NCBI GenBank assembly: GCA_963831715.1
Contig: CAWHRB010000001.1
Location: 640,306-704,305, forward strand
Direction: 5' to 3'
DNA length: 64,000 nt
Source of the DNA: an uncultured Chloroflexia bacterium
GTDB lineage: Bacteria; Chloroflexota; Limnocylindria; Limnocylindrales; CSP1-4
Made by a program: the position numbers and the translations under genes. The notes below the pieces were generated by a model. The model searched no databases, was not told the DNA's origin, and saw nothing but the letters and a program-made list of their open reading frames with translations. Positions 23,243 through 64,000 of this stretch are shown here, one piece after another. Positions within the stretch are counted from its first letter, which is position 1; every line of letters begins with the position of its first letter.

Positions 23243-23251
23243 GGGACGGGC

Positions 23252-49206: not shown

Positions 49207-49669
49207 ACAGATCGCGCCGACGGCGGGATCGGATAGTCCTAGCGCAGGCCCGCCAGATGCTCCTCGTCGTGTTCGACCGCGAGGCGGAGCAGCCCCTCAC
49301 CGTCGACCGTGCCGAACGTCGCGTGCCGGCCGGTCCGTGCCCAGCCCGCCTCGTCCAGAGCCTGATACCCGGCGACCGTCTCGCTGCGGAGCGACCGCGA
49401 ACCGTCGCAGCACGCCATCCAGGTCCAGGCCGGCTCGCCCGACCACGGGCCGGGTTCCTGCCACGTCCAGCTGCGGGGAATCCTGGGTCGTGAGATCGTG
49501 CAGCCGTGCCTGATGGACGTCGATCTCGACCGCGATCAGGTGGCGGGCGACCTGCTCGGGTGTCCATTCGCCGGCCGGGGTCGGGCGCTCGGCGGCGTCA
49601 CGCACGGCCGCACCGATACGCTCCGGGAAGGTCGCGAGTCGCTCCACGAGCGCGTCCCGGTCGGCCATC
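49207..49669 (-). pseudogene. DinB/DinB_2 superfamily protein, one frameshift near 49480
   Basis: MADRDALVERLATF…EWTPEQVARHLIAVEIDVHQ then …LAVEHDEEHLAGLR* in second frame; TGATG overlap with metF. Confidence 0.5.
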
Positions 49670-50549
49670 AGCTCGCACCCGCGAGCGACTCGAGCGTCGA
49701 CCGGCGCCAGGACTCGGTCGCCTCGACGGCGTTGAACGTATAGAGGTGGAAACCGGTGACGCGCGCGGTGGGATCGGCGAGCAGTGGGGCGACGCCCTCG
49801 ACGAAGGTGGTCGGCTTGTAGAAGCCGCCGCTCTTCGCGAGTCCAGTCACGAAGCGCAGGTTCTTGACGAGGAAGCGCTTGGCGTCCTTGACCCCGATCC
49901 GGGCCGCGATCGAGAGCAGCTTCTGCGGGTCGGCCACACCCGGCACGCCGACGACGATGTCCGGCACGAGGCCGTCCGCACGCTGCCGCTGGACCCATGT
50001 GGCGATCGCCTTGACGTCGAAGTCCATCTGGGTCGTGACGTGGTCGACATAGCGAGCCTTGTCGCGGAGCGCACGCTCCAGCGCCTCGTCCGGGATGTCG
50101 GGTGACCCTGCGGGTAGCCCGGGCAGCCGAGGGTCGTGAATGGATGGCCGAGCGTCTCGGCGAGTCGCCGGAGCAGCGACAGCCCGTCGAGGTATTCGCC
50201 GGGTTCGTTCTCGTCCCCACCGACCACGAACGCATGGGTCAGGCCGCCGTCCCGAGCCCGGTCGAGGAGGCCGGCCAGCGTCGCGCGGTCGCGGATCATC
50301 CGCGCCGACAGGTGCGGGATCGACGCGGAACCCGTCAGCCCTGGAGGCGCACGGCCCAGTCCAGCGTCGCGTCGATGCCCTTGGCGGGCGACGCGGTCAC
50401 CGACACACGCGCGCCGGCCGGCAGGTGCGCGATCTGGTCGGGCGATTCTTGAGCGGCAACAGCTCGAAGATCGGGTCCGCGAGCCGCGATGCCGAGCGCA
50501 TCGCGAGCCTCGGCGTCGAGGCCGCGCCGGCGACCGAGCAGCGTGGCCA
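49668..50549 (-). pseudogene. metF: 5,10-methylenetetrahydrofolate reductase MetF, two frameshifts
   Basis: Three in-order MetF segments in three frames; TGATG overlap with upstream MttB-family gene. Confidence 0.6.
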
Positions 50550-52091
50550 TCAGACCTCGGAGTCGGGCATCGACGCCTTGCGCCGGATCATGAACTCGAG
50601 CAGCTCCTCGTCGAGCGCCTGGTCGAGTGGCGGGGCCTCGTACTCGGCGAGCATCCGCTTCCAGATCGCGTTGGCGCGCTGCGCCGCGTCGAGCCCGCCA
50701 TCCTCGCTCCACTGCTCGAACGAGTTGTTGTCGGCCACCTCGGAGCGGTAGAACGCGGTCTCGAAGTTGGCGAGCGTGTGCGCCGTGCCGAGGAAATGCT
50801 GACCCGGCGGGTTCGCCCGGATGGCGTCGAGGGCCTGGCCGTTCTCGGACAGGTCGACGCCCTTCACGAAGACGGCCATCATCCCGCACTGGTCGGCGTC
50901 GAGGATGAACTTCTCGTACCCGACGGTCAGCCCGCCCTCGAGCCAGCCGGCCGCGTGGAGCACGAAGTTCACGCCGCCGAGCACCGTCGGCTGGAGGGTC
51001 GCGGCACTCTCGTAGGCGGCCTGCGCGTCGGGGATCTTGGAGGCGCACAACGAGCCGCCCGAGCGGAACGGCACGCCGAGCCGCCGGGCGAGCGACGCCA
51101 TCGTGTACAGCACCAGTGCCGGTTCCGGCGTCCCGAACGTCGGCGCTCCCGATTGCATCGACATCGAGCTCGCGAAGCTGCCGAGGACGACCGGCGCGCC
51201 CGGCCGGACGAGTTGCACGAAGGTCATCCCGGCGAGCGCCTCGGCGAGGGTCTGGGCGGCGACGCCCGCGGCGGTCACGGGTGCCATCGCCCCGGCCAGG
51301 ATGAACGGCGTCAGCAGCGTCGCCTGGTTGGCTTCGGCGTAGGCCCGCGCCGCCCCGAGCATCGTCGCGTCCCAGACCAGCGGCGAGTTCGCGTTGATCA
51401 GCGACAGGACGACCGCATGGTCGTCGAGGTAGTCGGCGCCGAACAGGATCCGCGCCATCTCGACGGTGTCGCGCGCCCGCTCGGGCGCCGTGACGGAGCC
51501 CATGAACGGCTTGTCCGAGAAGCGCATGTGCGAATAGACCATGTCGAGGTGGCGCTTGTTGACCGGGACGTCGACCGGCTCGCAGACCGTCCCGCCGCTG
51601 TGGTGGAGGTGCGGCGAGAGGTAGGTCAGCTTCACGAGGTTGCGGAAGTCCTCGATCGTGCCGTAGCGGCGGCCGCGGTCGAGGTCGCGCACGAACGGCG
51701 AGCCGTAGTTCGGCGCGAAGACCGTGTGCGGTCCGCCGATCTCGACGTTGTTCGCCTCGTTGCGGGCGTACTGGGTGAACTGGCGTGGGGCGGTCGCCTG
51801 GACGATCGTGCGGCACATGCCGCGCGGGAAGCGGACGAGCTCGCCGTCCACATCGGCACCCGCCTCGTGGAGCGATCGGACGGCCTCCGGATCGCCGCGG
51901 AACACGACGCCGACCTCCTCAAGGATGGTGTCCGCGTTGTGCTCGATGAGCGACAGGCCCTCCTCGTCGAGCACCTCGAACGGCGCCAGCGTCCGCGTCA
52001 GGAACGGCGTCCGTTCGAGCTGCGCGTGGAGACGCGCCGCCCGCCGTGCGTCGCGGCCACCACTGCGCCGCGTCGGCACCGGATCGCTCAT
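50550..52091 (-). CDS. MttB-superfamily (non-pyrrolysine) quaternary-amine:corrinoid methyltransferase (MtgB-like, glycine betaine type likely)
   Basis: 513-aa TIM-barrel MttB family sequence with no internal stop (no Pyl codon needed). Confidence 0.8.
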   Translation of the reverse strand: MSDPVPTRRSGGRDARRAARLHAQLERTPFLTRTLAPFEVLDEEGLSLIEHNADTILEEVGVVFRGDPEAVRSLHEAGADVDGELVRFPRGMCRTIVQATAPRQFTQYARNEANNVEIGGPHTVFAPNYGSPFVRDLDRGRRYGTIEDFRNLVKLTYLSPHLHHSGGTVCEPVDVPVNKRHLDMVYSHMRFSDKPFMGSVTAPERARDTVEMARILFGADYLDDHAVVLSLINANSPLVWDATMLGAARAYAEANQATLLTPFILAGAMAPVTAAGVAAQTLAEALAGMTFVQLVRPGAPVVLGSFASSMSMQSGAPTFGTPEPALVLYTMASLARRLGVPFRSGGSLCASKIPDAQAAYESAATLQPTVLGGVNFVLHAAGWLEGGLTVGYEKFILDADQCGMMAVFVKGVDLSENGQALDAIRANPPGQHFLGTAHTLANFETAFYRSEVADNNSFEQWSEDGGLDAAQRANAIWKRMLAEYEAPPLDQALDEELLEFMIRRKASMPDSEV

Positions 52092-54141
52092 CGTTCGTCA
52101 CCGGGCACGGCCCGGAGGGCGGGTCGGCGTCGGCGCCGATCGCGCGGTCCGTCCATGGTGCGCTCCGTCACCGGCTGGCGAGCGGGCAGGTCGACGACCC
52201 GCTCGAGGTTCGGGTTCGGCGCCGTCCGGTGCGGGATCGCCATGGCTTCGACGAAGTGCTCCTGGAACCGTGGCTCGACCGCCGTCTCGATCTTCTCGAC
52301 CCGCCGAACGACCGATTCGATCTCGCGCCTGGCCTCGCCCGACAGGAGGGCGATCAGCGCCCCGGTGCCGGCCGCGTTGCCGGCTGCTCGCACTCGACCA
52401 AGGTCACAATCGGGCACGAGGCCGAGCACCATCGCGTGGAGGGGATCGATCTGGCTGCCGAATGCGCCGGCCAGCCGCACCTCATCGACCGTGTCGCGTC
52501 CGAGCTGATCCATGAGCAGGCGGGCACCGGCGTAGAGGGCGGCCTTGGCGAGCTGGATCGCCCGCACGTCGTTCTGGGTGATGACGATGCGCGGACCGCC
52601 ATCAGCGGGCTCGTGCAGGACATAGCTGAAGGTCCGTCCGTCGGCGATCACCCGCGGTGTCCGGGCGGCGACCGTGCCGTCGATCACGCCGTCGGCCGTG
52701 ATCACGCCCGCCAGGAACAGCTCGGCGATCACTTCGATGATGCCGGACCCGCAGATCCCGGTGATGCCGGCCCCGGCGGCCTCGAGCGCCTCGACGAAGG
52801 TGGGCTCGTCCGACCAGGCCTCGACGCCGATCACCCGGAAGCGCGGCTCGAGCGTCGTCCGGTCGACGCGCACGCGCTCGATCGCGCCGGCCGCCGCCCG
52901 CTGACCCGAGCTGATCTGGGCACCCTCGAACGCCGGGCCGGTCGGGCTGCTGGCGGCGAGCAGCCGGTCCCGGTTGCCGAGCACGATCTCGGCGTTCGTG
53001 CCGACGTCGACGATCAGCGTGATGGCCTCGGCCTCGTGCGGCTCTTCCGCGAGGATCACACCGGCCGTATCTGCGCCGACGTGACCGGCGATGCACGGCA
53101 GGATGTAGACGCGGGCCCCGGGGTGGGCGTAGACGCCGAGCTCGGCGGCGGTCGTGGCGACCGCGGTATCGGTCGCGAGCGCGAAGGGCGCGGAACCGAG
53201 GGGCGTCGGATCGATGCCCAACAGCAAGTGGTGCATGATCGGGTTCCCGACGATCGCCAGCTCGAGGATCTCGAGCCGCTTGGTGTCGCTCTTGTTGGCC
53301 AGTGCGGCAAGCAACCCATCGAGCGCCTTGCGCACGGCCGTGGTCAGCTCGACGTCGCCGCCTTCGTGCATCATCACGTACGAGACGCGGCTCATCAGGT
53401 CCTCACCGAACCGGATCTGCGGGTTCATGACGCCGGCGCTGGCGAGGATCTCGCCGCTCAGGAGGTTCACGAGGTGGCCGGCGATCGTCGTCGACCCCAC
53501 ATCGATCGCGACCCCGAACGCGCGGTCATGGAACCCCGGCCAGACGGCGATCACATCGTGGCCACCGTGGACGGCCACCGTCACGCGGTAGAAGGCGGCC
53601 GTCAGCGTCGACTGCAGCACGCGGATGACCGACAGGTCGGCCCGAAGGTCGTCGAGACCCCACTCACGGCCAAGCGCCTCGAAGAGGCGCCCGAGGTCGC
53701 CGGTCGGCGTCGCGAGGTCGGGCTCGCTGACGTCGACGGTGTAGAGCCGCACGACGGGGTCCATCTCGAAGGCCCGTGCGGCGAGGTCCTTGCGGATGAT
53801 CTGCCGATGGACCTGGCTCTCCGGTGGGACGTCGATCAGGGCGTCGCCCAGCACCGTGGCCGTGCACGACAACCGCCGGTCCTCCGCCAGGCCCTGCTCC
53901 TCGCGGTACGCCGTCTCGAGCTGGCCCGGCTCCGCGATGTGGTCCGGCGCGGAGGTGATCCCGTGCTTCGCGAATGTCCCGAAGGCCGGCGTGACGGTGC
54001 ATCGACCGCAGACCCCGCGGCTGCCACAGACGGCATCGACGTCGACACCGAGCGAGCGCGCAGCGTCGAGGATGGTGGTGCCGGCCGGCACGCGACCGCG
54101 TCGTCCGGAGGGCGTGAAGATGACCTGTGGGTCGGTCACGG
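52088..54141 (-). CDS. Corrinoid reductive activase (RamA-like: N-terminal 2Fe-2S ferredoxin + ASKHA ATPase domain)
   Basis: CGSRGVCGRCTV ferredoxin motif, large ASKHA domain (DxGTN-type motifs); start estimated. Confidence 0.75.
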
Positions 54142-54167
54142 TCTCGGTCGGGGCCACGGGCCCGCGG

Positions 54168-55145
54168 TCAGCTGGCGGCCGGGACGTCGAGCCCCGGGAC
54201 GTCCACACCCGGCACGTCGGCAGAGCGTTCCGGCGGCGTGCCGTTCGACGCGGGACCACGGCGTCGATTCACACGGCGGCGGCCGACCTCGCCCTCGGCC
54301 GGCTCGACGCGGAACCGGCGGATCCAGCGGGCAGCGTCACGATCGTTGCCCATCAGGACATCGCTGGCCATGACGGCCGTGCGGACACCCTCCGAGATCG
54401 GGTTGGTGATGGCCGAGGTCAGCCCCGAGGCGATCGCCATGTTGAGGAACGCGCCATTGATGCCCTCACGGTTCGGCAGGCCGAAGCTGACGTTCGATGC
54501 CCCGCACGTCGAGTTGACCTTCAGCTCGTCGCGCAGTCGACCGAGGATCCGGAACACCTGGCGGCCGGCACCTGCGAGCGCGCCGATCGGCATGAGCAGC
54601 GGGTCCACGACGATGTCCTCGCGCGGGATGCCATGGTCCGCGGCCCGCTCGACGATGCGCTTGGCCACGGCGAAGCGGACGTCGGGATCCATGCTGATGC
54701 CGGTCTCGTCGTTGCTGATGGCGACGACCGCGCAGCCGTACTTCTTGACGAGCGGCAGCACCCGCTCGAGCCGCTCCTCCTCACCGGTCACGCTATTGAG
54801 GAGCGGCTTGCCCTGGTACACGGCGAGGCCCGCCTCGAGCGCCTCGACGATCGAAGAGTCGATCGAGAGCGGGAGGTCGGTCAGCGATTGGACGAGCTGG
54901 ATGGTCCTGGCGAGGATCGCCGGCTCGTCGGCCAGGGGGATGCCCGCATTGACGTCGAGCATCTGCGCGCCGGCCTCGACCTGGGCGATCGTGTCGCGCT
55001 CGACGCGCGAGAAGTCGCCTGCCGCCATCTCCTCCGCGAGCAGCTTGCGACCGGTCGGGTTGATGCGCTCGCCGATGACCACGAACGGCCGGTCGTCACC
55101 GATGACGACCTCGCGGGTCGCGGAGCTGACGATGGTCCTCGTCAT
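54168..55145 (-). CDS. Methyltetrahydrofolate:corrinoid methyltransferase (pterin-binding, MtgA/MtrH-like)
   Basis: Pterin-binding DHPS-like barrel (…IGERINPTG…, …NSV…, CGASNVSFGLP…). Confidence 0.75.
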   Translation of the reverse strand: MTRTIVSSATREVVIGDDRPFVVIGERINPTGRKLLAEEMAAGDFSRVERDTIAQVEAGAQMLDVNAGIPLADEPAILARTIQLVQSLTDLPLSIDSSIVEALEAGLAVYQGKPLLNSVTGEEERLERVLPLVKKYGCAVVAISNDETGISMDPDVRFAVAKRIVERAADHGIPREDIVVDPLLMPIGALAGAGRQVFRILGRLRDELKVNSTCGASNVSFGLPNREGINGAFLNMAIASGLTSAITNPISEGVRTAVMASDVLMGNDRDAARWIRRFRVEPAEGEVGRRRVNRRRGPASNGTPPERSADVPGVDVPGLDVPAAS

Positions 55146-55489
55146 ACGCCGGCCTTGCCCTGGGTCTCATCGTGCGCCGGCGGCAAGGCCTCGGCGCCGT
55201 CGACGCCACCGGACTGGATGAGCATCGCGAGGCGGTGCTTGTCGTAGTCGGCCTCGAGACGCTCGGCTTCGGCCGCGACCTCCTCGTCGATGTCCTCGCC
55301 ACAGCGGCGTTGGGTCCGTCGCCACTCCTCGATGTAGTCGTTGTAGGCTCGCTTGCCGGCTCGGCTGGCGGCCTTGTCGATGGCGACCTGGAAGCGCGGA
55401 TGCAAGACGATCTTGCTCTGCTTGCGGCCCTCGCGAGCGGTGACCTGCGCCGGGATGTCGCGCCACCAGATGACGGTCATCGTGCCCAT
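55142..55489 (-). CDS. Small conserved hypothetical protein in corrinoid operon
   Basis: 115 aa (MGTMTVIWWRDIPAQV…); translationally coupled position; function unknown. Confidence 0.4.
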   Translation of the reverse strand: MGTMTVIWWRDIPAQVTAREGRKQSKIVLHPRFQVAIDKAASRAGKRAYNDYIEEWRRTQRRCGEDIDEEVAAEAERLEADYDKHRLAMLIQSGGVDGAEALPPAHDETQGKAGV

Positions 55490-55492
55490 CGA

Positions 55493-56152
55493 TCAGCGTC
55501 CCGCGACGTCGATGAGCGGCACGACCGTCGGCGCCGGATGCCCGGCCGCCACCGCGGCGATCGTCGTCGCCAGCTGGCCGTAGCCCGTCGAGCGCTGCTC
55601 GTAGCGAAGACCGAGGCGCCGAGCGGCACGTCTGGCGGCCGCTGCCAGCGCGGGGTCGTCGGTCTGGGCGAGGTAGACGAGCCGGTGGTAGTTGCCGAAA
55701 TACTGGTCGCGCAGCTCTGGATGGCGGTCGAGACCGAGGCCCTTGATGACCAGCCGATCGAAGTTGCGGGCCAGGAAATCGGTCAGGAAGAAGGTCCCCG
55801 GCTCGTCGTCGACCATCCGCGCAAACTCGGGGCTCGTCGCATAGAACTCGTAGCAATGCGCGCCCGCGAGGCGCTCGACGCCCTCCTCGGCGATGACAGG
55901 GTCGAGCAGGCCGCCGGTGCCGCAATCGGCATAGGCGACGAAGACGCGGTCGTAGCCGGCCCGTCGCCGGCGGATCCGTTCGCGGACGGCGGCAGGGATC
56001 CCGCCCGGCCGGTTGTGGAGGGTCGCCGGCAGGCAGGTGATGTCGACGTTCGGCAGGTCCTTCGTCAGCGCGACGAGCTCACGAGCGAGGGCGCCGCAGC
56101 CGACGACCAGGACCTTGGGCTCGCTGCCCTCACGCCGGGACGCTGGCACGCG
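55493..56152 (-). CDS. DUF1638-like protein (corrinoid-methyltransferase-associated)
   Basis: KVLVVGCGALAREL…ADCGTGG pattern characteristic of DUF1638; start estimated. Confidence 0.5.
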   Translation of the reverse strand, partial: RVPASRREGSEPKVLVVGCGALARELVALTKDLPNVDITCLPATLHNRPGGIPAAVRERIRRRRAGYDRVFVAYADCGTGGLLDPVIAEEGVERLAGAHCYEFYATSPEFARMVDDEPGTFFLTDFLARNFDRLVIKGLGLDRHPELRDQYFGNYHRLVYLAQTDDPALAAAARRAARRLGLRYEQRSTGYGQLATTIAAVAAGHPAPTVVPLIDVAGR

Positions 56153-56837
56153 CTCGTCGCTCGTCGATGAGCCGGCGGGCCGTCTCAGCGGCGACGCCGG
56201 CGTCCCGGCAGTAGGCGTCGGCACCGACCGCCATCCCGAACTCCTCGTTCAGCGGCGCTCCGCCGACGAGCACGATGTAGTCGTCCCGGATCTCGCGATC
56301 CTTGAGTGTCTGGATGACGACCTTCATGTACGGCATCGTCGTCGTGAGGAGGGCCGACATCCCGAGGATGTCCGGCTTGTGCTCGGTGAGGGCGTTGATG
56401 AACTTGTCGGCATCGGTGTTGATGCCCAGGTCGACCACCTCGAAGCCGGCACCCTCGAGCATCATCCCGACGAGGTTCTTGCCGATGTCGTGGATGTCGC
56501 CCTTGACCGTCCCGATGACGACCTTGCCGACCGGCTCCGCGCCGGTCTCGGCGAGCAACGGGCGCAGGATCGCCATGCCGGCTTTCATCGCGTTGGCCGC
56601 GAGCAGGACCTCGGGGACGAACAGGATCCCGTCACGGAAGTCGATGCCGACGATCTTCATGCCGGCCACCAGCGCGTCGTCGAGCACCTTCGTCGCGGAG
56701 AACCCGCGCGCGAGCAGGATGTTGGTCCCCTCGACGATCTCGTCCTTCATGCCGTCGTAGAGGTCGTTGTGCATCTGCTCGACGAGCTCGTCGTCGGACA
56801 GGCTCTTGAGGTCGATGTCCTGATAGTCGTCGGTCAT
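56130..56837 (-). CDS. Corrinoid (B12-binding) protein, MtgC/MttC-like
   Basis: B12-binding cap + DIHDIGKNLVG…MSALLTT…VLVGGAP motifs. Confidence 0.85.
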   Translation of the reverse strand: MTDDYQDIDLKSLSDDELVEQMHNDLYDGMKDEIVEGTNILLARGFSATKVLDDALVAGMKIVGIDFRDGILFVPEVLLAANAMKAGMAILRPLLAETGAEPVGKVVIGTVKGDIHDIGKNLVGMMLEGAGFEVVDLGINTDADKFINALTEHKPDILGMSALLTTTMPYMKVVIQTLKDREIRDDYIVLVGGAPLNEEFGMAVGADAYCRDAGVAAETARRLIDERRARASVPA

Positions 56838-56943
56838 CTGCGATCGCTCCGGTCCCGAAAGTGGCGATGGGATCGAGTTGGGGGGTTCCACATCGTGGAA
56901 CCGTACCGTATGATGGAACCCGCGACCCCGAATCTAGCCGGAA

Positions 56944-57705
56944 GTGAAGCCAGTGTCCAGCGTCCAATCCATCAGACGGGCCTTCGCCGTGCTCGACGCG
57001 CTCGACGAGGGGCCGCTCGGCGTGACCGATGTGGCCGACCGGGCTGCCCTACCGAAGTCGACAGCCGCCCGCCTGCTGGCCACGCTCGTCGGCGAGGGCG
57101 CGGTCGAGCAGGTCCCAGGTGAGACGTCGTACCGCCTCGGACCGCGCCTGGTGACGCTGGCCGGTGGGTTCAGCCTCGTTCGCTCGCTCGCGGCGGTGGG
57201 CCGTCCGGTGCTCGTGGATCTCGCGGCCGCATCCGGCGAGGCGGCCGGGCTCGGCGTCCCGGATGGCGACCTCATCCATTACATCGACCAGGTCGATACG
57301 CCCAACCCCGTCGTCGTCCGCGACTGGACCGGTGCGCGCGCGCCACTGCACGCCGTCTCCTCCGGCCAGGTCCTGCTCGCGTTCCGAACACCGGCCGCCA
57401 TCGAGCGCTATCTCGCCCAGCCGTCGCTGGAGCGGTTCACCCCACGGACGCTGTCAGACCCGGAGACCGTCCGCGAACGCCTCCGGGACGTGCGTCGGCG
57501 CGGCTTTGCGTGGGCGATCGAGGAGTTCGACGCCGGGATCGCGTCGGTCGCGGCGCCGATCGCGGACGCGTCGGGTGAGGTCATCGCCGCAGTCCACATC
57601 CACGGACCGTCGTACCAATTCCCACCGCCAGAGCGCGAGGCGGAGCTCTCGCAGTCGGTCGTCACCGGGGCCGCGCGGATCGCGGCTGGGTTGCGCGAGC
57701 GCTAG
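56944..57705 (+). CDS. IclR family transcriptional regulator
   Basis: N-terminal HTH (…SVQSIRRAFAVLDAL…GVTDVADRAALPKSTAARLL…) and IclR effector domain. Confidence 0.85.
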   Translation: MKPVSSVQSIRRAFAVLDALDEGPLGVTDVADRAALPKSTAARLLATLVGEGAVEQVPGETSYRLGPRLVTLAGGFSLVRSLAAVGRPVLVDLAAASGEAAGLGVPDGDLIHYIDQVDTPNPVVVRDWTGARAPLHAVSSGQVLLAFRTPAAIERYLAQPSLERFTPRTLSDPETVRERLRDVRRRGFAWAIEEFDAGIASVAAPIADASGEVIAAVHIHGPSYQFPPPEREAELSQSVVTGAARIAAGLRER

Positions 57706-57715
57706 CGGCGGCGCC

Positions 57716-58041
57716 TTAGTCGGCCGTGGCCGGGCCCACCGGTTCGAGGTCGATGGTCCGAACCTGGCGCGTCTTGCCGGCCTCGGTCCGGACGACCGCC
57801 GACGGGATCACCCCGTTCGACATGCGCTCGATGACGGCGACCTCGCCGGCATACAGTCCGTTGCCGGCGATGCGCACCTTCCCGCCGACGGAAAGGCCCG
57901 TGCGGCCCTTGCCCGCGCTCGTGTCGATGATGGCGACTGTGGGGCGAACGTACGGCACGTCATCCGGCAGCCCGGTGGGCGGCGGGGGTCGATTGGCGGT
58001 CTTGGCCGGCGGGTAATTGACTTTCCGTTTGGGCACTGGTC
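57716..58041 (-). CDS. Small hypothetical protein (Pro-rich N-terminus, KOW-like C-terminal segment)
   Basis: GTG start 4 nt after AGGAGG; 108 aa. Confidence 0.4.
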
Positions 58042-58061
58042 CTCCTGTTAGTCCGTTCTTC

Positions 58062-58433
58062 CTACTCCGGTTCGTCCGATTTGATGGCGCGCTTGGCCTT
58101 CGATGCCTTGGCTTCGACGTCCGCGGCCAGCTCCGCCGCTTCGGCCTGGACGTCGTCGAGGGATCCTGCGACGGCATCGGTCCCGTTGCCGCCGGTGATG
58201 TTGGACCGGACCTCGTCGACCTGGGCCGTCACATTCGTCCTGACGTCTTCGACCTGGGATGCCACCTTGGTGCGGACGTCGCGGGTGCGCACGTCGATCT
58301 CGTCGCCGAGCTCTCCGAGCTTGCTGTCGACCCGGTACTTGTCCCGGAATTCGGAGCCGGCTCGGGACATGTACCAGGCAGCGGCCCCAGCCGCCACCAC
58401 GATGCCGGCGATCATGCCACTGATGAAGCCCAT
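58062..58433 (-). CDS. Membrane-anchored coiled-coil protein (YtxH/DUF948-like)
   Basis: N-terminal TM (MGFISGMIAGIVVAAGAAAWY) then repetitive charged helix; RBS GGGAGG. Confidence 0.45.
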   Translation of the reverse strand: MGFISGMIAGIVVAAGAAAWYMSRAGSEFRDKYRVDSKLGELGDEIDVRTRDVRTKVASQVEDVRTNVTAQVDEVRSNITGGNGTDAVAGSLDDVQAEAAELAADVEAKASKAKRAIKSDEPE

Positions 58434-58533
58434 CGGGTACCTCCCACTCACCACGGGTCGGCCAGTTCTGTCGGACGGATACGACCGCGTCGGGCCGAGT
58501 GTACCGCCGTCGGGTCGTGCGTCCGTCAGGTGG

Positions 58534-59535
58534 TCAACCGGTGTCTTTCAGGCGGCGCACCTCCGCGGTGATCGCCGGTACCACGGCGTGCACGTCACCG
58601 ATGACGGCGTACGCAGCGCGCTTGAAGATCGGTGCCTCGGGATCGGTGTTGATGACGAGGATCCGCTTGGCGGCCTTCGCCCCGACGATGTGCTGGATCG
58701 CCCCGCTGATCCCGCAGGCGATGTACAGGTCAGGCGCGATGCGGGTGCCGGTCTGGCCGATCTGTTGAGCATGGGGACGCCAGCCGAGACTGGTCGCCAC
58801 GCGCGACACGCCGACGGCGGCCCCGAGCAGGGACGCGAGTTCGTCGAGCATGGCGAACGCCTCGCCGCTGCCGAGCCCTCGACCCCCGCCGACGACGACC
58901 TTGGCATCCGCCAGCGACACCCGGTCGGCGGCGGTGGCGTCCCGACCGACGACCCGCGCCCGGAGATCCGCGTCCGTCAGGGACGGCGCCACTCGCGTGA
59001 CGGTCGCGTCAGGTAAGGCGGCGCTCGCGTCGAGGGCCGGAACGACGTGCGGGGCGACCGTCAAGAGGCGCGGCTGTCCGTCGAGCAGAGCGTCCTCGAG
59101 CAGGCTGCCCGCCCAGCGCTGGCGGGTGATCCGCCACGGATCGCCCGGCTCGGCGGTCACGACGTTGGCCGCCATCGGCTGGCCGGTCCGGGCCGCGACA
59201 TGGGCGAGGACCTCGGTGGCGCGATCGCTGCCAGGCGCCACGACGGCGTCGTACGAGCCCCCACCGACGATGCCCGCCACCGCAGCGGCCCACGCCGCAG
59301 GGGCGTACGCCGCCAGGCGGTCATCGCCGACCACGTGGACCGTGCTGACGCCATAGCCACCCAGACCAGCAGCTGCGGTCTCGGCCTCCGAAGCCGCCTC
59401 GCCGCCGGCGACCACCACCGCGTCGACGTCTCCCCCGACCTGCGCGCCCAGCGCGCCCGCGAACCCGAGCGCTTCAGCACTCAGTCGGTCCGGACCGCGA
59501 CCGGCGGTCTCGACCAGGACGAGGATCCCGCTCAC
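58534..59535 (-). CDS. etfA: Electron transfer flavoprotein alpha subunit
   Basis: EtfA sequence incl. C-terminal FAD-binding (…PDLYIACGISGAIQH…). Confidence 0.9.
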   Translation of the reverse strand: MSGILVLVETAGRGPDRLSAEALGFAGALGAQVGGDVDAVVVAGGEAASEAETAAAGLGGYGVSTVHVVGDDRLAAYAPAAWAAAVAGIVGGGSYDAVVAPGSDRATEVLAHVAARTGQPMAANVVTAEPGDPWRITRQRWAGSLLEDALLDGQPRLLTVAPHVVPALDASAALPDATVTRVAPSLTDADLRARVVGRDATAADRVSLADAKVVVGGGRGLGSGEAFAMLDELASLLGAAVGVSRVATSLGWRPHAQQIGQTGTRIAPDLYIACGISGAIQHIVGAKAAKRILVINTDPEAPIFKRAAYAVIGDVHAVVPAITAEVRRLKDTG

Positions 59536-60296
59536 AGGACGCCGATCTCGCGCAGCATCTCGACGACCCGCGGGGCCGCCTCCGGTCCGTGCCCGAGGAC
59601 CTCGACATGGGCCTCCTGTTCAACGGGCAGCTTGAGCCGGTCTAGGGTCGGACCGCCGAGGGCCCGCTCGGGTTCGATCCGCTCGATCTCCTTCTTCTTG
59701 GCGCGCAGCCGGCCGGGGACCGACGGATAGCGCGGCAGGTTGATGCCCTCTCGGACGCCGACGACCGCCGGCAGCGGCAACTCATAGACGTCGAACCCTT
59801 CGGGCACCTGTCGCCGGGCGGTCGCCACCCCGTCATGCACCTCGAGCGCCTTGATGCCCGTGACCATCGGCCGGTCGAGCGCGACGGCGAGGCGGATCCC
59901 GACCTGGAAACCACCCGAGTCAGCCGACTCGTTGCCCACGAGGATCAGGTCGAACGGGCCGCCTTCCGCCTCCAGCCGCCGGACCGCATCAGTCAGGGCT
60001 GTGGAGGTCGCCATGGGATCCCAATCGGCCCCGTCGGTCTCGAGCAGGACTGCACGGTCGATGCCGATCGCCAATGCATCGCGTAGCTGGTCGGCCGCCT
60101 CGGCCGGGCCGAGGGTCATCACGACCGACTCGCCGCCGTTCGCCTCGATCAGGCGCACGGACTCCTCGACGGCGCACTCCTCGTGGGGGCTCACGACGAA
60201 CCCGAGGAACCGGGTGTCGATCGAGCGCCCGTCGTCGGCGAGCACGATGCGTCCGCCGGTCGCCGGGACACGCTTCACGAGCGCCAGGATGCGCAT
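59532..60296 (-). CDS. etfB: Electron transfer flavoprotein beta subunit
   Basis: MRILALVKRVP… EtfB family; GTGA overlap with etfA. Confidence 0.9.
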   Translation of the reverse strand: MRILALVKRVPATGGRIVLADDGRSIDTRFLGFVVSPHEECAVEESVRLIEANGGESVVMTLGPAEAADQLRDALAIGIDRAVLLETDGADWDPMATSTALTDAVRRLEAEGGPFDLILVGNESADSGGFQVGIRLAVALDRPMVTGIKALEVHDGVATARRQVPEGFDVYELPLPAVVGVREGINLPRYPSVPGRLRAKKKEIERIEPERALGGPTLDRLKLPVEQEAHVEVLGHGPEAAPRVVEMLREIGVL

Positions 60297-60304
60297 CGAC
60301 CGGG

Positions 60305-62830
60305 TCAGCTCCGGATCCGCTCGTTCTCGGGGTCGAACAGCGGGGTGGCGCCGGCGACCGCGACCGTGACCGGGTAGCGCTCGCCGAAGTACTCGACCTG
60401 CAGCTTGGTCCCTTCGACGGCCTGCTCGGGCGGCAGGTACGACATGAGCAGGTGCGTGCCGACCGATGGCCCGGACCCGGCGCTCGTCACATATGAGCGG
60501 CGGCCCTTGGCGTCGACGAGCGGGCTGCCGTCCTCGGCGAGGATGGGCTCGCGGCCGAGCATGTACCGCTTCACGCCGCTCTTCGAGGTGTTGTCGTCGA
60601 CCGTGAGCGTGCTCAGGATCGCGACCGGGGGTGCGTCACGCATGCGGAGGTAGGCATCGCGGCCGACGAATTCGGCGTCCTTGACCGTGGGCCGCGCCAT
60701 GCCCGCCTCAACCAGGTCGAAATCGAGCTCGAGCTCGGCGCCGTGGGCGCGGTAGCCCTTCTCCAGGCGAGACGTGACCGCGTATGTGCCGATCCCGACC
60801 GGTACGAGGCCGTGTGGCTGCCCCGCTCGCCAGAGCGCGTCCCAGACGCGCAGGCCCTGCTCGATCGGGACGTAGATCTCCCAGCCGAGCTCGCCGACGT
60901 AGCTGATGCGCGAGGCGAGGGTCCGCACCCCGTCGACCTCCACGGTCTTCGATGACAGGAACGGGAAGCCCGTGTGGCTGATGTCGGCGCTGCCGTCCGA
61001 CGCCGCGCCGAGGATGTCTCGCGCGCGCGGCCCCCACAGACCGAAGGTCGTGAAGGCGTTCGTCACGTCGTGCACCTGGGCCGAGCCGTCGGCGGGCATG
61101 GCGTCCCGGAAGATCTTCTTGTCGCGCATACCCATGCCGCCGCCGGTGACGACGCGGAAGTGGTCTTGGGCCAGCCGCATGATCGTGAGGTCGGCCAGGA
61201 TGCCACCGGCGCCGTTGAGGAGCGGCGTGTAGACGGTCCGACCGGGCGCGACGTCGACCTTGTTGACCGCCAGGCGCTCCAGGGCGGCCAGCGCCCCGGG
61301 TCCGGTCACGTCGAAGATCGCGAATGCCGACAGGTCGACGAGGCCCGCTCGGTCGCGCATCGCGAGATGCTCGGCGTTGACGATCGGCGACCACCAGCGC
61401 GATTCCCATTCAGCCTGGCGCGGCATGACGCGGTCCCCGTACTCGCCGAGGAGCGACTCGTTCGTGCCGTACCAATAGGGTCGCTCCCAACCGGCTGCCT
61501 CGAAGAACTCGGCGCCGAGCTCGACGTGACGCTCGTAGGCCGGCGACAGCCGGATCGGCCGGTTCGAGGCCCACTGCTCCATCGGGTGGACGATGCCGTA
61601 GGTCTTGTTGAAGCCCTCGCTGGCTCGCGCCTCGATGTGCTGGGCGGCCTTGTGGTGGTCGTAGAAGCGGGCGATATCCGACCCGTGCGGGTCGATCTCG
61701 GGCTCGCCGCTGGTCATCCACTCGGCGATCGCCTTGGCGATGCCCGGCGCCTCCTTGATCCAGATCGCCGCCGCGGACCACAGCCCCTTGACCTCGGGGG
61801 TCTCGCCGATGATGGGGTTGCCGTCCGGGGTGAGCGACAGGAGTCCGTTGATCGCCAGCTTCACGCCGACCGACTCGTCACCGACGATCTCGGGGAAGAG
61901 CTCGAGGGCGTCCTCGAGCTGCGGGTCGAAGTCCTCCTGGGTGAACGGCAGCATCGTCGGCGACAGGGCCGACGCCTCGATCGACGGGATGTCGTCGGCG
62001 TCCATCAGGATCGCCCGGTGCGCGTACGAGCCCACCTCGAAGCCGGTCCCGTGCTGGCGCTCGTACATGTTGGTGTCCATGTCGCGGACGATCGGGAAGC
62101 CGACTTCCTTGGTCGTGTGCTCGAACTGCGGCACCGGACCGATGTCGATCATCTGGTGCACCGCCGGCGTCAGCGGGATCGACGCCCCGGCCATCCGGGC
62201 GATGCGCGGGCTCCACACCCCACATGCGACGACGACCGTGTCGGCGGCGATATCACCCTGATCCGTGCGCACGCCACGCACGTGACCGTCGACGACGTCG
62301 ATGCCGGTGACCTCGACCCCGGCCGCGACCGTCAATGCGCCCATGTCCTGCGCCTTTTGACGCATGAGCGTGCCGGCCTGGAGCGAGTCGACGATCCCGA
62401 CGCCCGGCGTGTAGAAGCCGCCGAGGATCACCGAGTCCTCGATGAAGGGGACCATCTCCTTGACTTCGGTCGGCGTGAGCAACCGGGAACCCTCGATCCC
62501 CCACGAGGTCGATGCCGCCATCCGGCGCTTGAGCTCCTCCATCCGTTCCGGCGTGCGCGCGACCTCGATCCCGCCCGTCTCGTCATACACGCCGAGCTCG
62601 CGGTACTGGTTGGCACTGTCGACCGTGAAGGCGGTCATCTCCTTGGAGTGGTCGACGAGGAAGATGAAGTTCGAGGCGTGGCCGGTCGATCCACCGGGGC
62701 TCGGGAGCGGCCCCTTGTCCAGCAGCACGATGTTCCGCCAGCCCTGCTCGGCAAGGTGGTACGCCATGCTGTTGCCGACGATGCCGGCGCCGATGACGAC
62801 GACGTCCGCTCGCGCCGGAAGCGCGCCCAT
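60305..62830 (-). CDS. Dimethylglycine/sarcosine dehydrogenase family enzyme (FAD oxidoreductase + GcvT-like folate-binding domain)
   Basis: VVVIGAGIVGNSMAYHL FAD motif, DAO domain, C-terminal aminomethyltransferase fold; ATG ~62830. Confidence 0.85.
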   Translation of the reverse strand: MGALPARADVVVIGAGIVGNSMAYHLAEQGWRNIVLLDKGPLPSPGGSTGHASNFIFLVDHSKEMTAFTVDSANQYRELGVYDETGGIEVARTPERMEELKRRMAASTSWGIEGSRLLTPTEVKEMVPFIEDSVILGGFYTPGVGIVDSLQAGTLMRQKAQDMGALTVAAGVEVTGIDVVDGHVRGVRTDQGDIAADTVVVACGVWSPRIARMAGASIPLTPAVHQMIDIGPVPQFEHTTKEVGFPIVRDMDTNMYERQHGTGFEVGSYAHRAILMDADDIPSIEASALSPTMLPFTQEDFDPQLEDALELFPEIVGDESVGVKLAINGLLSLTPDGNPIIGETPEVKGLWSAAAIWIKEAPGIAKAIAEWMTSGEPEIDPHGSDIARFYDHHKAAQHIEARASEGFNKTYGIVHPMEQWASNRPIRLSPAYERHVELGAEFFEAAGWERPYWYGTNESLLGEYGDRVMPRQAEWESRWWSPIVNAEHLAMRDRAGLVDLSAFAIFDVTGPGALAALERLAVNKVDVAPGRTVYTPLLNGAGGILADLTIMRLAQDHFRVVTGGGMGMRDKKIFRDAMPADGSAQVHDVTNAFTTFGLWGPRARDILGAASDGSADISHTGFPFLSSKTVEVDGVRTLASRISYVGELGWEIYVPIEQGLRVWDALWRAGQPHGLVPVGIGTYAVTSRLEKGYRAHGAELELDFDLVEAGMARPTVKDAEFVGRDAYLRMRDAPPVAILSTLTVDDNTSKSGVKRYMLGREPILAEDGSPLVDAKGRRSYVTSAGSGPSVGTHLLMSYLPPEQAVEGTKLQVEYFGERYPVTVAVAGATPLFDPENERIRS

Positions 62831-62977
62831 GCAGACCCTCCTCCTGCGCCGCGTCGATGGGGCGGCGTGCGGGAGAGGATACCCGGACACCGGACCCGGA
62901 GCGCGCTACCGCGCCTTGACCGCCGCTCGAGCCGGTCCCATCCTCCGCCGTCCGAGCCAGAGTCGAGCGAGGGGACC

Positions 62978-64000
62978 GTGGCGAGCCTGTTCATCGATGG
63001 CGTGTGGGTCGCTTCAGGCGACGGGACGTGCAGTCCTGTCATCAACCCGAGCGACGGCTCGATCGTCACCGAAGTCGATGTCGCCACGGATGACCAGGTC
63101 CAGGCGGCGATCGCGGCCGCACGTCGCGCGTTCGACGCGACCGACTGGCCCCGGACGCCGACCGGTGAGCGTGCTGCGCTCCTGGACCGCATCGCGGGTC
63201 TGCTCGACCGTGACTTCGAGGACGTCGCGCGCGAGGAGACCCTCAACACGGGCAAGGCCATGCGCGAGAGCCGCGCCGACATCGCCGATGTCGTCCGCGT
63301 CTTCCGCTACTACGCGGATCTCGCCGACGAGGAGCCGGGCCGTCTTGTCGACACGAGCGTGCCCACCGCCGTCAGCCGCATCGTCTACGAGCCGGTCGGG
63401 GTGTGCGGGTTGATCGGGCCGTGGAACTACCCGCTGCTCCAGTTGTCCTGGAAGATCGCGCCGGCCCTCGCCGCCGGCTGCACGGCAGTGATGAAGCCGG
63501 CCCATCTGACGCCGCTGACCACGATCCACCTGACCCGGCTGCTCGAGGAAGCCGGCGTACCACGGGGCGTGGTCAATCTCGTCCTGGGACCGGGCGAGCG
63601 GGTCGGCCAGGCCCTCGCCGACTCGCCCGACATCGACCTCATCTCCCTCACCGGCGGCATCGAGGCCGGTCGGTCGCTGATGCGTGGCGCGGCCGTCAAC
63701 GTGAAACGGATCGCGCTCGAGCTCGGCGGGAAGAGCCCGAACATCGTCTTCGCCGACGCCGACTTCGAGACAGCCGTCGACAACGCCCTCACCGCGGCGT
63801 TCGTCCACTCGGGCCAGGTGTGCTCGGCCGGCTGCCGGGCGATGGTCGAGGCGTCCATCCACGACCGGTTCGTGGCGGCCGTCGCCGAGCGGGCCGACCG
63901 GATCCGGCTCGGGCATGGCCTCGATGAGCGGACCGAGACGGGAGCGCTCATCTCGGCCGAGCACCGGGCCAAGGTCGAGGCGTACGTCACGGGCGCGGTC
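62978..64000 (+). CDS. Aldehyde dehydrogenase (betaine-aldehyde dehydrogenase-like), 3' end beyond window
   Basis: GTG start after GAGGGG; ALDH motifs (LELGGKSPNIVF, catalytic GQVCSAG). Confidence 0.8.
   Translation, partial: MASLFIDGVWVASGDGTCSPVINPSDGSIVTEVDVATDDQVQAAIAAARRAFDATDWPRTPTGERAALLDRIAGLLDRDFEDVAREETLNTGKAMRESRADIADVVRVFRYYADLADEEPGRLVDTSVPTAVSRIVYEPVGVCGLIGPWNYPLLQLSWKIAPALAAGCTAVMKPAHLTPLTTIHLTRLLEEAGVPRGVVNLVLGPGERVGQALADSPDIDLISLTGGIEAGRSLMRGAAVNVKRIALELGGKSPNIVFADADFETAVDNALTAAFVHSGQVCSAGCRAMVEASIHDRFVAAVAERADRIRLGHGLDERTETGALISAEHRAKVEAYVTGAV

Follow-up and report, generated by a model that had tools for sequence, protein, structure and literature searches.

The MttB-family methyltransferases of Eubacterium limosum differ in their substrates, which are proline betaine for MtpB, carnitine for MtcB, gamma-butyrobetaine for MtyB and phosphocholine for MthB. 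For the glycine betaine enzyme of Desulfitobacterium hafniense (DhMtgB), the exchange F356L raises the Km about 800-fold (Picking et al., JBC 2026, PMC13080624). In Ruegeria pomeroyi, knockouts of mtgC and mtgD lose growth on glycine betaine, and the MtgB candidates, MetF2, RamA and a DUF1638 protein to which cobalamin reactivation is ascribed are induced on this compound; the MtgB candidates were identified from proteomic data and homology rather than by gene knockout (Mausz et al., PNAS 2025, PMC12478193). The same work covers marine Proteobacteria, with Actinomycetota amounting to 5% of the reads, and names a Sinorhizobium meliloti cluster as a colocalised MtgBCDE system. In Phaeobacter inhibens, a DUF1638 mutant is a methionine auxotroph (Price 2018, PMC5764234).

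Here we have used a window of 64,000 nucleotides from a Limnocylindria-like Chloroflexota lineage of soil; the 'actinobacterial background' named in the initial annotation was not borne out. The window contains a minus-strand operon which we read, with a probability of roughly 0.7, as an aerobic-type cobalamin-dependent glycine betaine demethylase of the MtgBCD kind. Judged by sequence, the system is known in kind and is orthologous to the aerobic MtgBCD/RamA/DUF1638/MetF2 glycine betaine demethylase of Ruegeria and Sinorhizobium (Mausz et al., PMC12478193). The kind of system is ordinary, and the novelty lies in a small uncharacterised PF13769 protein travelling with the B12-reactivation machinery, together with a conserved palindrome.

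The first gene of the operon (56130..56837, minus strand) encodes an MtgC-like corrinoid protein of 235 amino acids with the Pfam domains B12-binding_2 and B12-binding, the start being set by sister gene calls of 235 amino acids. Its best NCBIfam models are the two for MtgC, both of which it fails with 206 and 172 bits against cutoffs of 370 and 310. The second gene (55493..56149, minus strand) encodes a DUF1638 protein of 218 amino acids (PF07796, 101 bits), identical to P0121 over the entire length. The fourth gene (54168..55145, minus strand) encodes an MtgD/MtgA-like methyl-THF:corrinoid methyltransferase of 325 amino acids with the Pterin_bind domain, which scores 346.8 bits for NF005719 (cutoff 259). 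The fifth (52088..54157, minus strand) encodes a RACo/RamA-like ATP-dependent reductive activase of 689 amino acids, where Fer2, RACo_linker, Raco_middle and RACo_C_ter were all found by Pfam; with 362 bits for AcsV and 97 bits for RamA it is below both NCBIfam cutoffs. Its GTG start lies 10 nt past the mtgD stop and agrees with the 689-aa call in the sister contig L092. The corrinoid protein, the MtgA-like methyltransferase and the RamA-type activase proposed earlier are therefore confirmed by their domains.

The third gene (55142..55489, minus strand) encodes a 115-aa protein of family PF13769 ('Virulence_fact', 73.9 bits) and overlaps the next gene by ATGA. Among 36 complete operons the PF13769 gene is kept in 34 and the DUF1638 gene in 30. 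In T. flagellatum, P0287 and P0325 the PF13769 domain is fused to Fer2 and RACo, at the RACo N-terminus. This fusion in some bacteria and the high retention point to a role in corrinoid reactivation, and we propose from these sequence data that the protein may be an accessory of the reactivation module. The gene is absent from the text of Mausz et al. 2025 (PMC12478193). An AF2 model of the PF13769 protein (pLDDT 88.6) had no fold match in PDB; the model of the DUF1638 protein was poor (pLDDT 62.8) and had no fold match either. DUF1638 had been called unassigned, which is true of its specific mechanism but not of its involvement, given the auxotrophy in P. inhibens and the induction in R. pomeroyi (PMC5764234, PMC12478193).

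The sixth gene (50550..52091, minus strand) encodes an MttB-family methyltransferase of 513 amino acids, the candidate MtgB. It matches PF06253 over profile positions 1-500 of 500 in a single stretch (763 bits) and has no in-frame stop; it is therefore pyrrolysine-free, as had been claimed. Searching PDB gave 716 bits for 4YYC, which is the S. meliloti cluster protein, and about 400 bits for DhMtgB (2QNE/9YCE). Three of the four residues contacting glycine betaine in DhMtgB are kept (Y97, R312, H348), while F356 aligns to a glycine both here and in 4YYC, so a cation-pi cage must be built otherwise, possibly with the tryptophan four residues after H348. No NCBIfam equivalog was passed by this protein or by the corrinoid protein.

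Gene order is conserved in Chloroflexota, Actinomycetota and Proteobacteria. Identities to the S. meliloti cluster are 71% for the corrinoid (cobalamin-binding) protein, 54% for DUF1638, 42% for PF13769, 64% for MtgD, 57% for RACo and 65% for MttB; taking in Azoarcus, the range is 64-75% for MtgD, and 42-47% for PF13769 when the Terrarubrum cluster is included as well. The start/stop overlaps reported at the gene junctions are real, being of the types ATGA, TGATG and GTGA.

Two further genes listed for the operon, metF and dinB, are found in the window and are not open reading frames. The metF2-type short MTHFR gene (49668..50552, minus strand) is spread over three reading frames; an alignment with five orthologues places about 5 single-base indels near 50480, 50449, 50341, 50325 and 50102. 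The DinB_2 gene (49239..49668, minus strand) reads in two frames with at least one indel, as seen by tblastn with the L011 and L024 orthologues. The existing ORFs across this region gave no Pfam matches, whereas frame-corrected conceptual translations pass with 36.9 bits against 24 for MTHFR and 30.6 against 24.8 for DinB_2. Intact copies are present in L089, L091 and L092, with 289-291 amino acids for metF and 145-153 for dinB, and the L092 MetF matches PDB 7XG9 with an E-value of 1e-30. Every gene in the earlier list was thus recovered, these two after frame correction. Only the first six genes, intact and translationally coupled, literally fit the description as one coupled operon. An intact metF2 is absent from the sequence as given, which counts against the glycine betaine operon reading.

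The island had been ended at 49207, yet it continues below with a garbled 246-aa ORF, a SAM riboswitch, metH and a fusion gene. The frame-broken block covers 6.4 kb, opening with metF and dinB and also holding the 246-aa ORF and metH. Homology confirms 4 or more breaks in the classical metH (44120..47894, minus strand), whose S-methyl_trans, B12-binding_2 and B12-binding domains are spread over separate ORFs; a tblastn search with the L004 MetH found pieces in frames -3, -1, -2 and -3 at 68-85% identity. Relative to L091 and L092, where the gene is intact with 1259 amino acids, there are 1-nt insertions at 46905 and 46028. The riboswitch in the metH leader (47985..48091, minus strand; Rfam RF00162, full length, 69 bits against a gathering threshold of 44.4) sets off what lies downstream of the island as a transcription unit of its own. 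Next to metH follows an intact YitJ-like bifunctional homocysteine S-methyltransferase/MTHFR (42159..44144, minus strand; NF006396, 641.8 bits against 453).

We consider that metF, dinB and metH are probably broken by consensus errors of a long-read metagenome assembly, because two sister contigs of about 90-96% identity carry all three genes in intact form. In L091, 1-nt G/C insertions of the same style as those in the window metH break ALDH, DMGDH and RACo, genes that are clearly needed, and in L088 both RACo and MttB are broken; split core genes occur in 9 of 134 cases in long-read MFD loci compared with 0 of 214 in other loci. An amine oxidase gene 29 kb away has a further isolated frame break. 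That the breaks are real, and that metF2, dinB, the 246-aa ORF and metH are decaying in the host strain as a snapshot of the metH loss inferred by Mausz et al., is an alternative that we regard as rather unlikely. It would draw on some 40 indels of lengths other than multiples of three between 50549 and 45493, with none in the coding sequence of 50550-64000, and on the absence of metH in about 70% of marine MtgBCD genomes (PMC12478193); the intact bifunctional gene immediately downstream, with MtgC and MtgD, would make both metF2 and metH redundant. The block runs exactly from the stop of MttB to that of metH, a pattern given more naturally by selection than by random error. Against decay, the metH pieces have no in-frame stops, keep a GC3 of 0.9-1.0 and are 90-95% identical to the sisters in amino acids, and the riboswitch is intact. 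The excess of window-specific amino acid changes in metH (20 against 9, p = 0.06) points towards decay but is slight.

Divergent from the operon, as had been noted, is a gene for an IclR-family regulator (56944..57705, plus strand; HTH_IclR and IclR_C), found at the same position in 24 of the 36 complete operons. A repeat search of the promoter region between iclR and mtgC gave a palindrome, GGTTCCAC-N3-GTGGAACC, with a degenerate second copy (56884..56920). Allowing up to 3 mismatches, GTTCCAC-N3-GTGGAAC is present in 30 of 32 loci with the divergent arrangement, and this conservation makes it a likely candidate for the IclR operator. Beyond iclR are two conserved small ORFs (57716..58433, minus strand), one of 106 amino acids without a family and one of about 123 which is YtxH-like, with weak YtxH/Apolipoprotein matches below cutoff; the pair is retained between etfA or soxG and iclR in L081, L086, L088, L089, L091 and L092.

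The adjoining dimethylglycine-dehydrogenase-family gene and etfBA are confirmed. The etfA gene (58534..59535, minus strand) and etfB (59532..60296, minus strand), which overlap by GTGA, give the Pfam domains ETF and ETF_alpha. The 841-aa dehydrogenase/oxidase (60305..62830, minus strand) carries DAO, FAO_M, GCV_T and GCV_T_C, and its best PDB match is the A. globiformis dimethylglycine oxidase 1PJ5 with 573 bits over the full length, as compared to about 315 bits for mammalian DMGDH. The proposed betaine-aldehyde-type dehydrogenase lies on the plus strand (62978..64000) and is cut by the window end, with about 341 of about 489 codons inside (the L092 copy has 489 amino acids) and Pfam Aldedh matched over profile positions 1-325 of 461. 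Its best NCBIfam model is indeed TIGR01804 (BADH), where 407 bits over 332 of 467 positions is below the cutoff because of the truncation. DMGDH-EtfBA or SoxBDAG is found directly upstream in close relatives, whose neighbourhoods also include a BADH-like ALDH and an ABC transporter, and a DMGDH-family gene is at most 10 kb away in 18 of the 36 complete operons. Within the 64-kb window neither a sarcosine-demethylating enzyme nor a transporter was found, which counts against the glycine betaine reading.

With these parts, the MttB-family enzyme would transfer a methyl group from glycine betaine to the Co(I) form of MtgC, releasing dimethylglycine, and MtgD would pass the methyl group on to tetrahydrofolate. 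The short MetF2-type MTHFR could then oxidise methyl-THF, making methylene-THF available to C1 oxidation or assimilation. The activase together with DUF1638 and, as proposed, PF13769 may return adventitiously oxidised Co(II) to Co(I). The DMGDH-family enzyme is predicted to convert dimethylglycine to sarcosine, passing electrons to EtfAB while THF takes up the C1 unit, the ALDH would feed in choline-derived betaine aldehyde, and IclR probably controls the operon through the palindrome. Orthologues and neighbours back the earlier functional reading, from glycine betaine over dimethylglycine to sarcosine with methyl transfer to THF; the direction of flux is inferred.

The caution that the substrate of an MttB-family protein cannot be read from its sequence stays correct, and glycine betaine is the best-supported, if unproven, substrate, from context and three of four binding residues. 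The same machinery might instead serve proline betaine, carnitine, gamma-butyrobetaine, choline/phosphocholine or TMA, with the DMGDH, ETF and ALDH neighbours belonging to a parallel or downstream branch, which we regard as unlikely. R312 and H348 recur in MtcB, MtpB, MthB and MtyB and so point to an acidic quaternary amine without singling out glycine betaine, F356 is lost, and multiple MttB paralogues are common in carriers, with as many as seven in marine bacteria and second copies in L021, L033, L054 and L067. However, the adjacent 1PJ5-like enzyme uses exactly the product of glycine betaine demethylation, and the neighbours alternate between DMGDH-Etf and SoxBDAG, always within the N-methylglycine pathway. 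Furthermore, genes annotated as glycine betaine transporter components occur in two other clusters: DMGDH-like-EtfBA-proV-proW and a gene for a glycine betaine binding protein border the operon of Azoarcus, and in S. meliloti the cluster includes bmt together with an ABC transporter gene for glycine betaine/proline. TMA is unlikely because pyrrolysine is absent and the TIGR02369 score is far under the cutoff (252 against 525). It is very improbable that the corrinoid protein, the pterin-binding methyltransferase and the N-terminal homocysteine module of the YitJ-like protein are mainly a split methionine synthase, with demethylation secondary. An intact homocysteine S-methyltransferase domain does lie 6 kb downstream, and Halioglobus loci have such a gene inserted within the operon. 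The lineage, however, has a classical MetH of five domains, which brings its own reactivation domain and SAM riboswitch, so a split enzyme is not needed, and the operon is tied to MttB and catabolic DMGDH/ETF genes under IclR, not to methionine regulation.

Compared to known systems, the operon shares with D. hafniense MtgB/MtgC/MtgA (Ticak 2014; Picking, PMC13080624) the three-component logic and the MttB-family TIM-barrel enzyme. It differs in an MttB of only about 44% identity, in a corrinoid protein outside the MtgC models, in an aerobe-type host with ETF-linked DMGDH, and in the addition of DUF1638, PF13769 and metF2. The E. limosum enzymes likewise belong to the non-pyrrolysine MttB superfamily and work with one corrinoid protein and an MtqA-type THF methyltransferase, but in anaerobic acetogens and in neighbourhoods without DMGDH/ETF; they were set apart by their descriptions. 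The activase has the four-domain layout (Fer2, linker, middle, ASKHA) of RACo from Carboxydothermus hydrogenoformans and RamA from methanogens, all above the Pfam cutoffs, and differs in its NCBIfam scores and in being accompanied by DUF1638 and PF13769. The three-part MetH of P. inhibens (Price 2018, PMC5764234) has the same corrinoid, pterin, RamA-like (DUF4445) and DUF1638 module, which in the window is joined to an MttB-family methyl donor enzyme and catabolic genes. The MtgBCD(E) system of R. pomeroyi and S. meliloti (PMC12478193) has the same MtgB (pfam06253), MtgC, MtgD, RamA-like and DUF1638 proteins, metF2 beside mtgD, and genes of later demethylation steps colocated, as reported for non-roseobacter taxa. 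S. meliloti and Azoarcus encode MTHFR together with an MTHFR_C protein, whereas the window metF2, of the short 7XG9-like type, has no MetV-like partner. With a classical metH and its SAM riboswitch also present, the system need not serve in methionine synthesis as well, in contrast to the split methionine synthase of Mausz et al., and all its parts are packed into a single compact operon of a soil Chloroflexota lineage.

Because the G+C content of the window is about 70%, lists of open reading frames are swamped by spurious frames. Genes were picked by third-position G+C together with a frame HMM, and were then checked against Pfam, NCBIfam and PDB. Six minus-strand genes running from 56837 to 50550 are all intact. 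These encode a corrinoid protein with B12-binding_2 and B12-binding domains (56130-56837), a DUF1638 protein (PF07796, 55493-56149), a 115-aa protein of the PF13769 'Virulence_fact' family (55142-55489, 73.9 bits), a pterin-binding methyltransferase (54168-55145; NF005719 346.8 bits, cutoff 259; Pfam Pterin_bind 93 bits, cutoff 25.5), a RACo-type activase (52088-54157) and a 513-aa MttB-family protein (50550-52091; PF06253 763 bits, cutoff 25, over profile positions 1-500 of 500). In operon order, the first two genes overlap by 20 nt, the next junctions are a gap of 3 nt, ATGA and a gap of 10 nt, and the last is again ATGA. The Pfam and NCBIfam matches and these overlapping or near-abutting junctions confirm the core of the coupled operon proposed in the initial annotation. 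The DUF1638 protein is 100% identical to a database representative (P0121). Four Pfam domains of the activase are above cutoff (2Fe-2S ferredoxin Fer2, RACo linker, middle and ASKHA C-terminal), and it falls below the cutoffs of the NCBIfam equivalog models AcsV and RamA; it is therefore a member of the broad family and not of those subfamilies.

The MttB-family gene is an uninterrupted frame of 513 codons with no internal stop, and thus no in-frame UAG. Its score to TIGR02369, the model of the pyrrolysine-dependent TMA methyltransferase MttB, is 252 against a cutoff of 525. That enzyme is ruled out by the unbroken frame and this score, and the earlier description of a pyrrolysine-free MttB homologue stands. 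None of the NCBIfam equivalogs was passed by the protein. A match to the Rfam family PYLIS_3 (38.4, threshold 38) lies inside the coding sequence at 50951-51050 (minus strand) and most likely represents coding-sequence homology rather than a working element.

For comparison we used MtgB of Desulfitobacterium hafniense (about 400 bits), the MttB-family structure 4YYC (716 bits) and MttB of M. barkeri (105 bits). Glycine betaine is bound in D. hafniense MtgB by Y97, F356, R312 and H348 (PMC13080624). Three of the four (Y97, R312 and H348) are conserved in the window protein, and the position of F356 is a glycine both there (HAAGWLEGGL) and in 4YYC. R312 and H348 are common to enzymes for other acidic quaternary amines (PMC13080624). 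The binding residues alone therefore signal an acidic quaternary amine, and it is the gene context that signals glycine betaine.

Several features of this context count for glycine betaine. The adjacent enzyme related to 1PJ5, which is accompanied by an ETF, would act on dimethylglycine, the product of the demethylation. In close relatives the heterotetrameric sarcosine oxidase SoxBDAG takes the position of the dimethylglycine dehydrogenase (DMGDH) and Etf genes, and in two sister contigs (L091 and L092) an ABC transporter lies directly past the aldehyde dehydrogenase. On a plasmid of Azoarcus KH32C the neighbours of the operon on either side are DMGDH-like-EtfBA-proV-proW and a gene for a glycine betaine binding protein, with a 70%-identical MttB 24 kb off, and in S. 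meliloti bmt and a glycine betaine/proline transporter ATPase are found within 10 kb of the corresponding cluster. Judged from residues and neighbourhood, glycine betaine is the probable substrate of the MttB-family protein, with a probability of roughly 0.7. The functional reading of the initial annotation, betaine-type quaternary-amine demethylation, is sound on orthology to the S. meliloti cluster and on gene context.

Upstream of and around the operon we find a divergent iclR (56944-57705, plus strand), two small conserved ORFs, etfA, etfB, a DMGDH-family gene and an aldehyde dehydrogenase gene. The 841-aa DMGDH-family protein has a DAO, FAO_M, GCV_T and GCV_T_C architecture (Pfam), and its top PDB relative is the dimethylglycine oxidase 1PJ5 from Arthrobacter (573 bits, full length). 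By architecture and nearest characterised relative, its predicted product is of the dimethylglycine dehydrogenase/oxidase class. Profile matches, and the match to 1PJ5, thus place the IclR regulator, etfBA and the DMGDH-family enzyme beside the operon, as had been noticed at first. The plus-strand aldehyde dehydrogenase is cut by the window end; its best model is TIGR01804 (BADH), with 407 bits against a cutoff of 669 and 332 of 467 profile positions within the window. The two small ORFs (57716-58433, minus strand) are a YtxH-like ORF of about 123 aa and a 106-aa ORF without a family, and the pair is kept between etfA (or soxG) and iclR in every close relative (L081, L086, L088, L089, L091 and L092).

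The intergenic region between iclR and the corrinoid protein gene is 108 nt long. Within it, positions 56884-56902 form a perfect palindrome, GGTTCCAC-N3-GTGGAACC, and a second, degenerate copy lies alongside. GTTCCAC-N3-GTGGAAC, allowing up to 3 mismatches, is present in 30 of 32 loci of the same divergent arrangement, where the chance expectation for such a match is estimated at about 0.006 per locus. The palindrome is a plausible candidate for the IclR operator.

Both DUF1638 and the 115-aa protein had been listed as unassigned in corrinoid methyl transfer, with co-occurrence analysis as a check. This still describes PF13769, for which there is no literature, and no longer DUF1638, which has genetic support and is also induced in Ruegeria pomeroyi on glycine betaine (PMC12478193). 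Our literature search found no paper naming PF13769 or 4YYC, PF13769 is absent from the text of Mausz et al. (PMC12478193), and NCBIfam has no model for either family. Structure gave little: the AF2 model of DUF1638 is poor (pLDDT 62.8), its matches being generic alpha/beta folds with TM of at most 0.30, and a profile search of PDB sequences with this family returned nothing. The confident AF2 model of PF13769 (pLDDT 88.6) is a strand-strand-strand-helix-helix-strand-helix-helix arrangement for which Foldseek found no significant match in PDB (best E = 0.29, TM 0.24).

Of 36 complete operons, 34 carry PF13769, among them actinobacterial versions without DUF1638. The gene overlaps mtgD by ATGA (translational coupling). 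The S. meliloti operon has the order PF13769-MTHFR_C-MTHFR-MtgD-hyp-ASKHA, and the Azoarcus operon also holds PF13769; the homologues are LZK74_26835 and AZKH_RS23660, respectively. Clustered at 50% identity, the family falls into about 945 groups, and almost all of these are standalone proteins of 100-150 aa. In three proteins PF13769 is located N-terminal to a RACo-type activase: the 760-aa WP_342364319.1 of Terrarubrum flagellatum (plasmid locus L095, 9001-11283) with Fer2 and three RACo domains, and the metagenomic P0325 (Fer2 and RACo linker) and P0287 (RACo domains, no Fer2 match). Fusions to DUF1638 (P0312, P0272 and P0348) and to Pterin_bind (P0248) were also found, and some of the metagenomic 'fusions' could be gene-call artefacts. 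Another representative, P0267, is a tandem PF13769.

Given the fusions to activases, a physical partnership between PF13769 and the activase is our best working hypothesis. PF13769 could, for example, be a docking or electron-entry adaptor at the ferredoxin end of the activase. With somewhat less than even confidence, we propose that it is a so far unrecognised third component of a corrinoid reductive-reactivation module, beside the RACo/RamA-like ATPase and DUF1638, and that this module would serve aerobic cobalamin methyltransferases, among them the MtgBCD glycine betaine demethylase and the split methionine synthase. In R. pomeroyi the uncharacterised SPO1861 adjoins metF2 and mtgD and is induced on glycine betaine; it may be a PF13769 or MetV-like homologue. 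PF13769, a family whose name ('virulence factor') misleads, emerges as a candidate component of B12 reactivation. Carriers available in culture are S. meliloti, Azoarcus KH32C and T. flagellatum.

Downstream of the MttB-family gene a block of 6.4 kb (44120-50552) contains metF, dinB, a remnant of a 246-aa ORF and metH, all disturbed. metF begins in one frame directly past the MttB stop (TGATG), runs on in others and ends in a third. When it is aligned with five orthologues of 77-80% nucleotide identity, indels of one base come to lie near 50480, 50449, 50341, 50325 and 50102. dinB is divided between two frames. The ORFs physically present at metF and dinB have no Pfam match, and the frame-corrected translations alone pass MTHFR (PF02219, 36.9 bits, cutoff 24) and DinB_2. 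Thus metF and dinB, counted as operon members at first, are present by homology, but not as open frames in the given sequence. By homology the classical metH (44120-47894) is broken at four points: one nucleotide is inserted at 46905 and another at 46028, a further break lies near 45351, and the frame changes once more between 45061 and 44820, where the last two pieces overlap; composition indicates more breaks in the final 700 nt. Directly upstream of metH lies an intact, full-length SAM (S-box) riboswitch (47985-48091, minus strand, 69 bits), and metH is therefore a separate SAM-controlled transcription unit downstream of the betaine operon. Between dinB and this riboswitch the sisters carry an ORF of 68 aa and one of 246 aa whose product falls in no Pfam family (L092, 17022-17978). 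In the window (48100-49200, minus strand) the copy has a start resembling a twin-arginine signal (SRRALL), the rest being unreadable with about 27 indels.

The breaks may represent genuine decay of the block, or a strain-heterogeneous region that was poorly polished. Such readings would fit the block edges, which match gene ends, and the window metF, which is of a different allele class from that of the sisters (68% nucleotide identity). They have to be weighed against the two sisters, ENA assembly contigs of about 2 Mb each with the same gene order as the window, which are 90-96% identical to it over 64000-50550 and over metH. Both sisters carry intact copies of metF (289 aa), dinB (145 aa), the 246-aa ORF and metH (1259 aa, with all five domains). 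When the three sequences are aligned, about 40 indels of a length other than a multiple of three fall at 50549-45493 of the window, and its coding sequence at 64000-50550 (13.4 kb) is free of them. L091 itself has seven private 1-nt G/C insertions (window-equivalent 63989, 63547, 62708, 62409, 61830, 53547 and 52120), at least some of which break ALDH, DMGDH and RACo. These are the error signature of these long-read metagenome assemblies, of the same character as the insertions in the window metH, and they also count against decay.

Long-read consensus error is to our judgement quite probably responsible, and the more likely cause of the frame breaks. RACo and MttB are broken in a related long-read contig (L088), and split core operon genes were found in 9 of 134 cases in long-read 'MFD' MAGs versus 0 of 214 in other public-genome loci. 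Furthermore, the metH pieces have 90-95% amino-acid identity to the sisters, no in-frame stops and very high GC3. A relative-rate test on metH gave a weak excess of window-specific changes (20 versus 9, p = 0.06), partly from frame-junction residues, and relaxed selection was not shown. A gene for a flavin amine oxidase (14211-15627, minus strand), well away from the main block, has an isolated frame break at about 15.2 kb: Pfam Amino_oxidase positions 2-85 and 197-443 are read in different frames. In contigs of long-read MAGs, frame breaks that occur in clusters can mimic pseudogenisation.

Adjoining metH is an intact YitJ-like bifunctional Hcy S-methyltransferase/MTHFR (42159-44144, minus strand; NF006396 641.8 bits against 453). 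The N-terminal half of this fusion resembles the MtgE/Bhmt-type Hcy-binding module, which in Halioglobus loci is found within the operon (L058, 13758-14636, and L074). Elsewhere in the window, phenylacetate catabolism genes occupy 3199-8081 (minus strand): paaA/C-like, paaB, paaC, paaD, 3-hydroxyacyl-CoA dehydrogenase and thiolase. Frameshifts at 4.4-7.1 kb were ruled out, these being the separate genes paaB, paaC, paaD and 3HCDH. A consecutive run at 18353-25660 (plus strand) of an amino-acid permease, a glutamine-synthetase-like protein (Gln-synt_C), an SDR, a ROK protein and an aldehyde dehydrogenase may be an amine catabolic cluster of the gamma-glutamylation type.

The window contains no ribosomal or other marker gene, so the lineage assignment rests on synteny. 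Among species-representative genomes the nearest MttB relatives are from 'Chloroflexia' and 'Candidatus Limnocylindrales' MAGs (86-88% amino-acid identity), versus at most 79% for Actinomycetota. Independently of the operon, the flanking genes downstream, for Rrf2, a SufC-like ATPase, cysteine desulfurase, NifU and ThiF-rhodanese have syntenic orthologues with 70-90% identity, most of them 81-90%. Loci with these housekeeping orthologues are mostly titled 'Chloroflexia' MAGs, together with one Polarisedimenticolia and one without a taxon label (L089), and none of the flanking genes was found in actinobacterial loci. The identities and the synteny contradict the actinobacterial background that had been suggested for the island.

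The cobalamin-dependent route of glycine betaine demethylation was described in 2025 in marine Proteobacteria. In the window it takes the form of one compact and probably self-regulated operon, a form widespread among MAGs of soil Chloroflexota (Limnocylindria-like) and Actinomycetota. Its commonness in soil MAGs implies a B12 demand and a betaine/choline sink in soils. As every component is in one transcription unit, the operon can be used as an annotation reference for the pathway. The chief gains are the link between PF13769 and the activase and the commonness of the pathway in soil Chloroflexota and Actinomycetota.

Mausz et al. (PNAS 2025, PMC12478193) report that growth of R. pomeroyi on glycine betaine needs the cobalamin-binding MtgC and the pterin-binding MtgD, and that pfam06253 proteins (MtgB) are induced together with MetF2, a RamA-like activase and DUF1638. 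In other taxa these genes are operonic and lie with those for later demethylation steps, and in S. meliloti the MtgBCDE genes are colocalised in a cluster (PMC12478193). MtgC and MtgD of this aerobic MtgBCD system are reported to have a dual function, being also needed for methionine synthesis (PMC12478193); classical metH is present in the window lineage (both sisters). In the window MtgB-, MtgC- and MtgD-like proteins, a RamA-like activase and DUF1638 are all encoded in one operon, with the adjacent metF2 frame-broken. The order divergent iclR, CoP-DUF1638-PF13769-MtgD-RACo-MttB-metF(-dinB), where CoP is the corrinoid protein, is found in dozens of Chloroflexota and Actinomycetota loci, and is rearranged in Gamma-, Beta- and Alphaproteobacteria. 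The MttB-family protein of the S. meliloti cluster is 4YYC (1190 bits), which is the nearest solved relative of the window protein (65% identity); the remaining identities to S. meliloti are 71% for the corrinoid protein, 54% for DUF1638, 42% for PF13769, 64% for MtgD and 57% for RACo. On this orthology and the conserved order, the window operon is therefore a member of an already described system, a type of betaine demethylation known since 2025.
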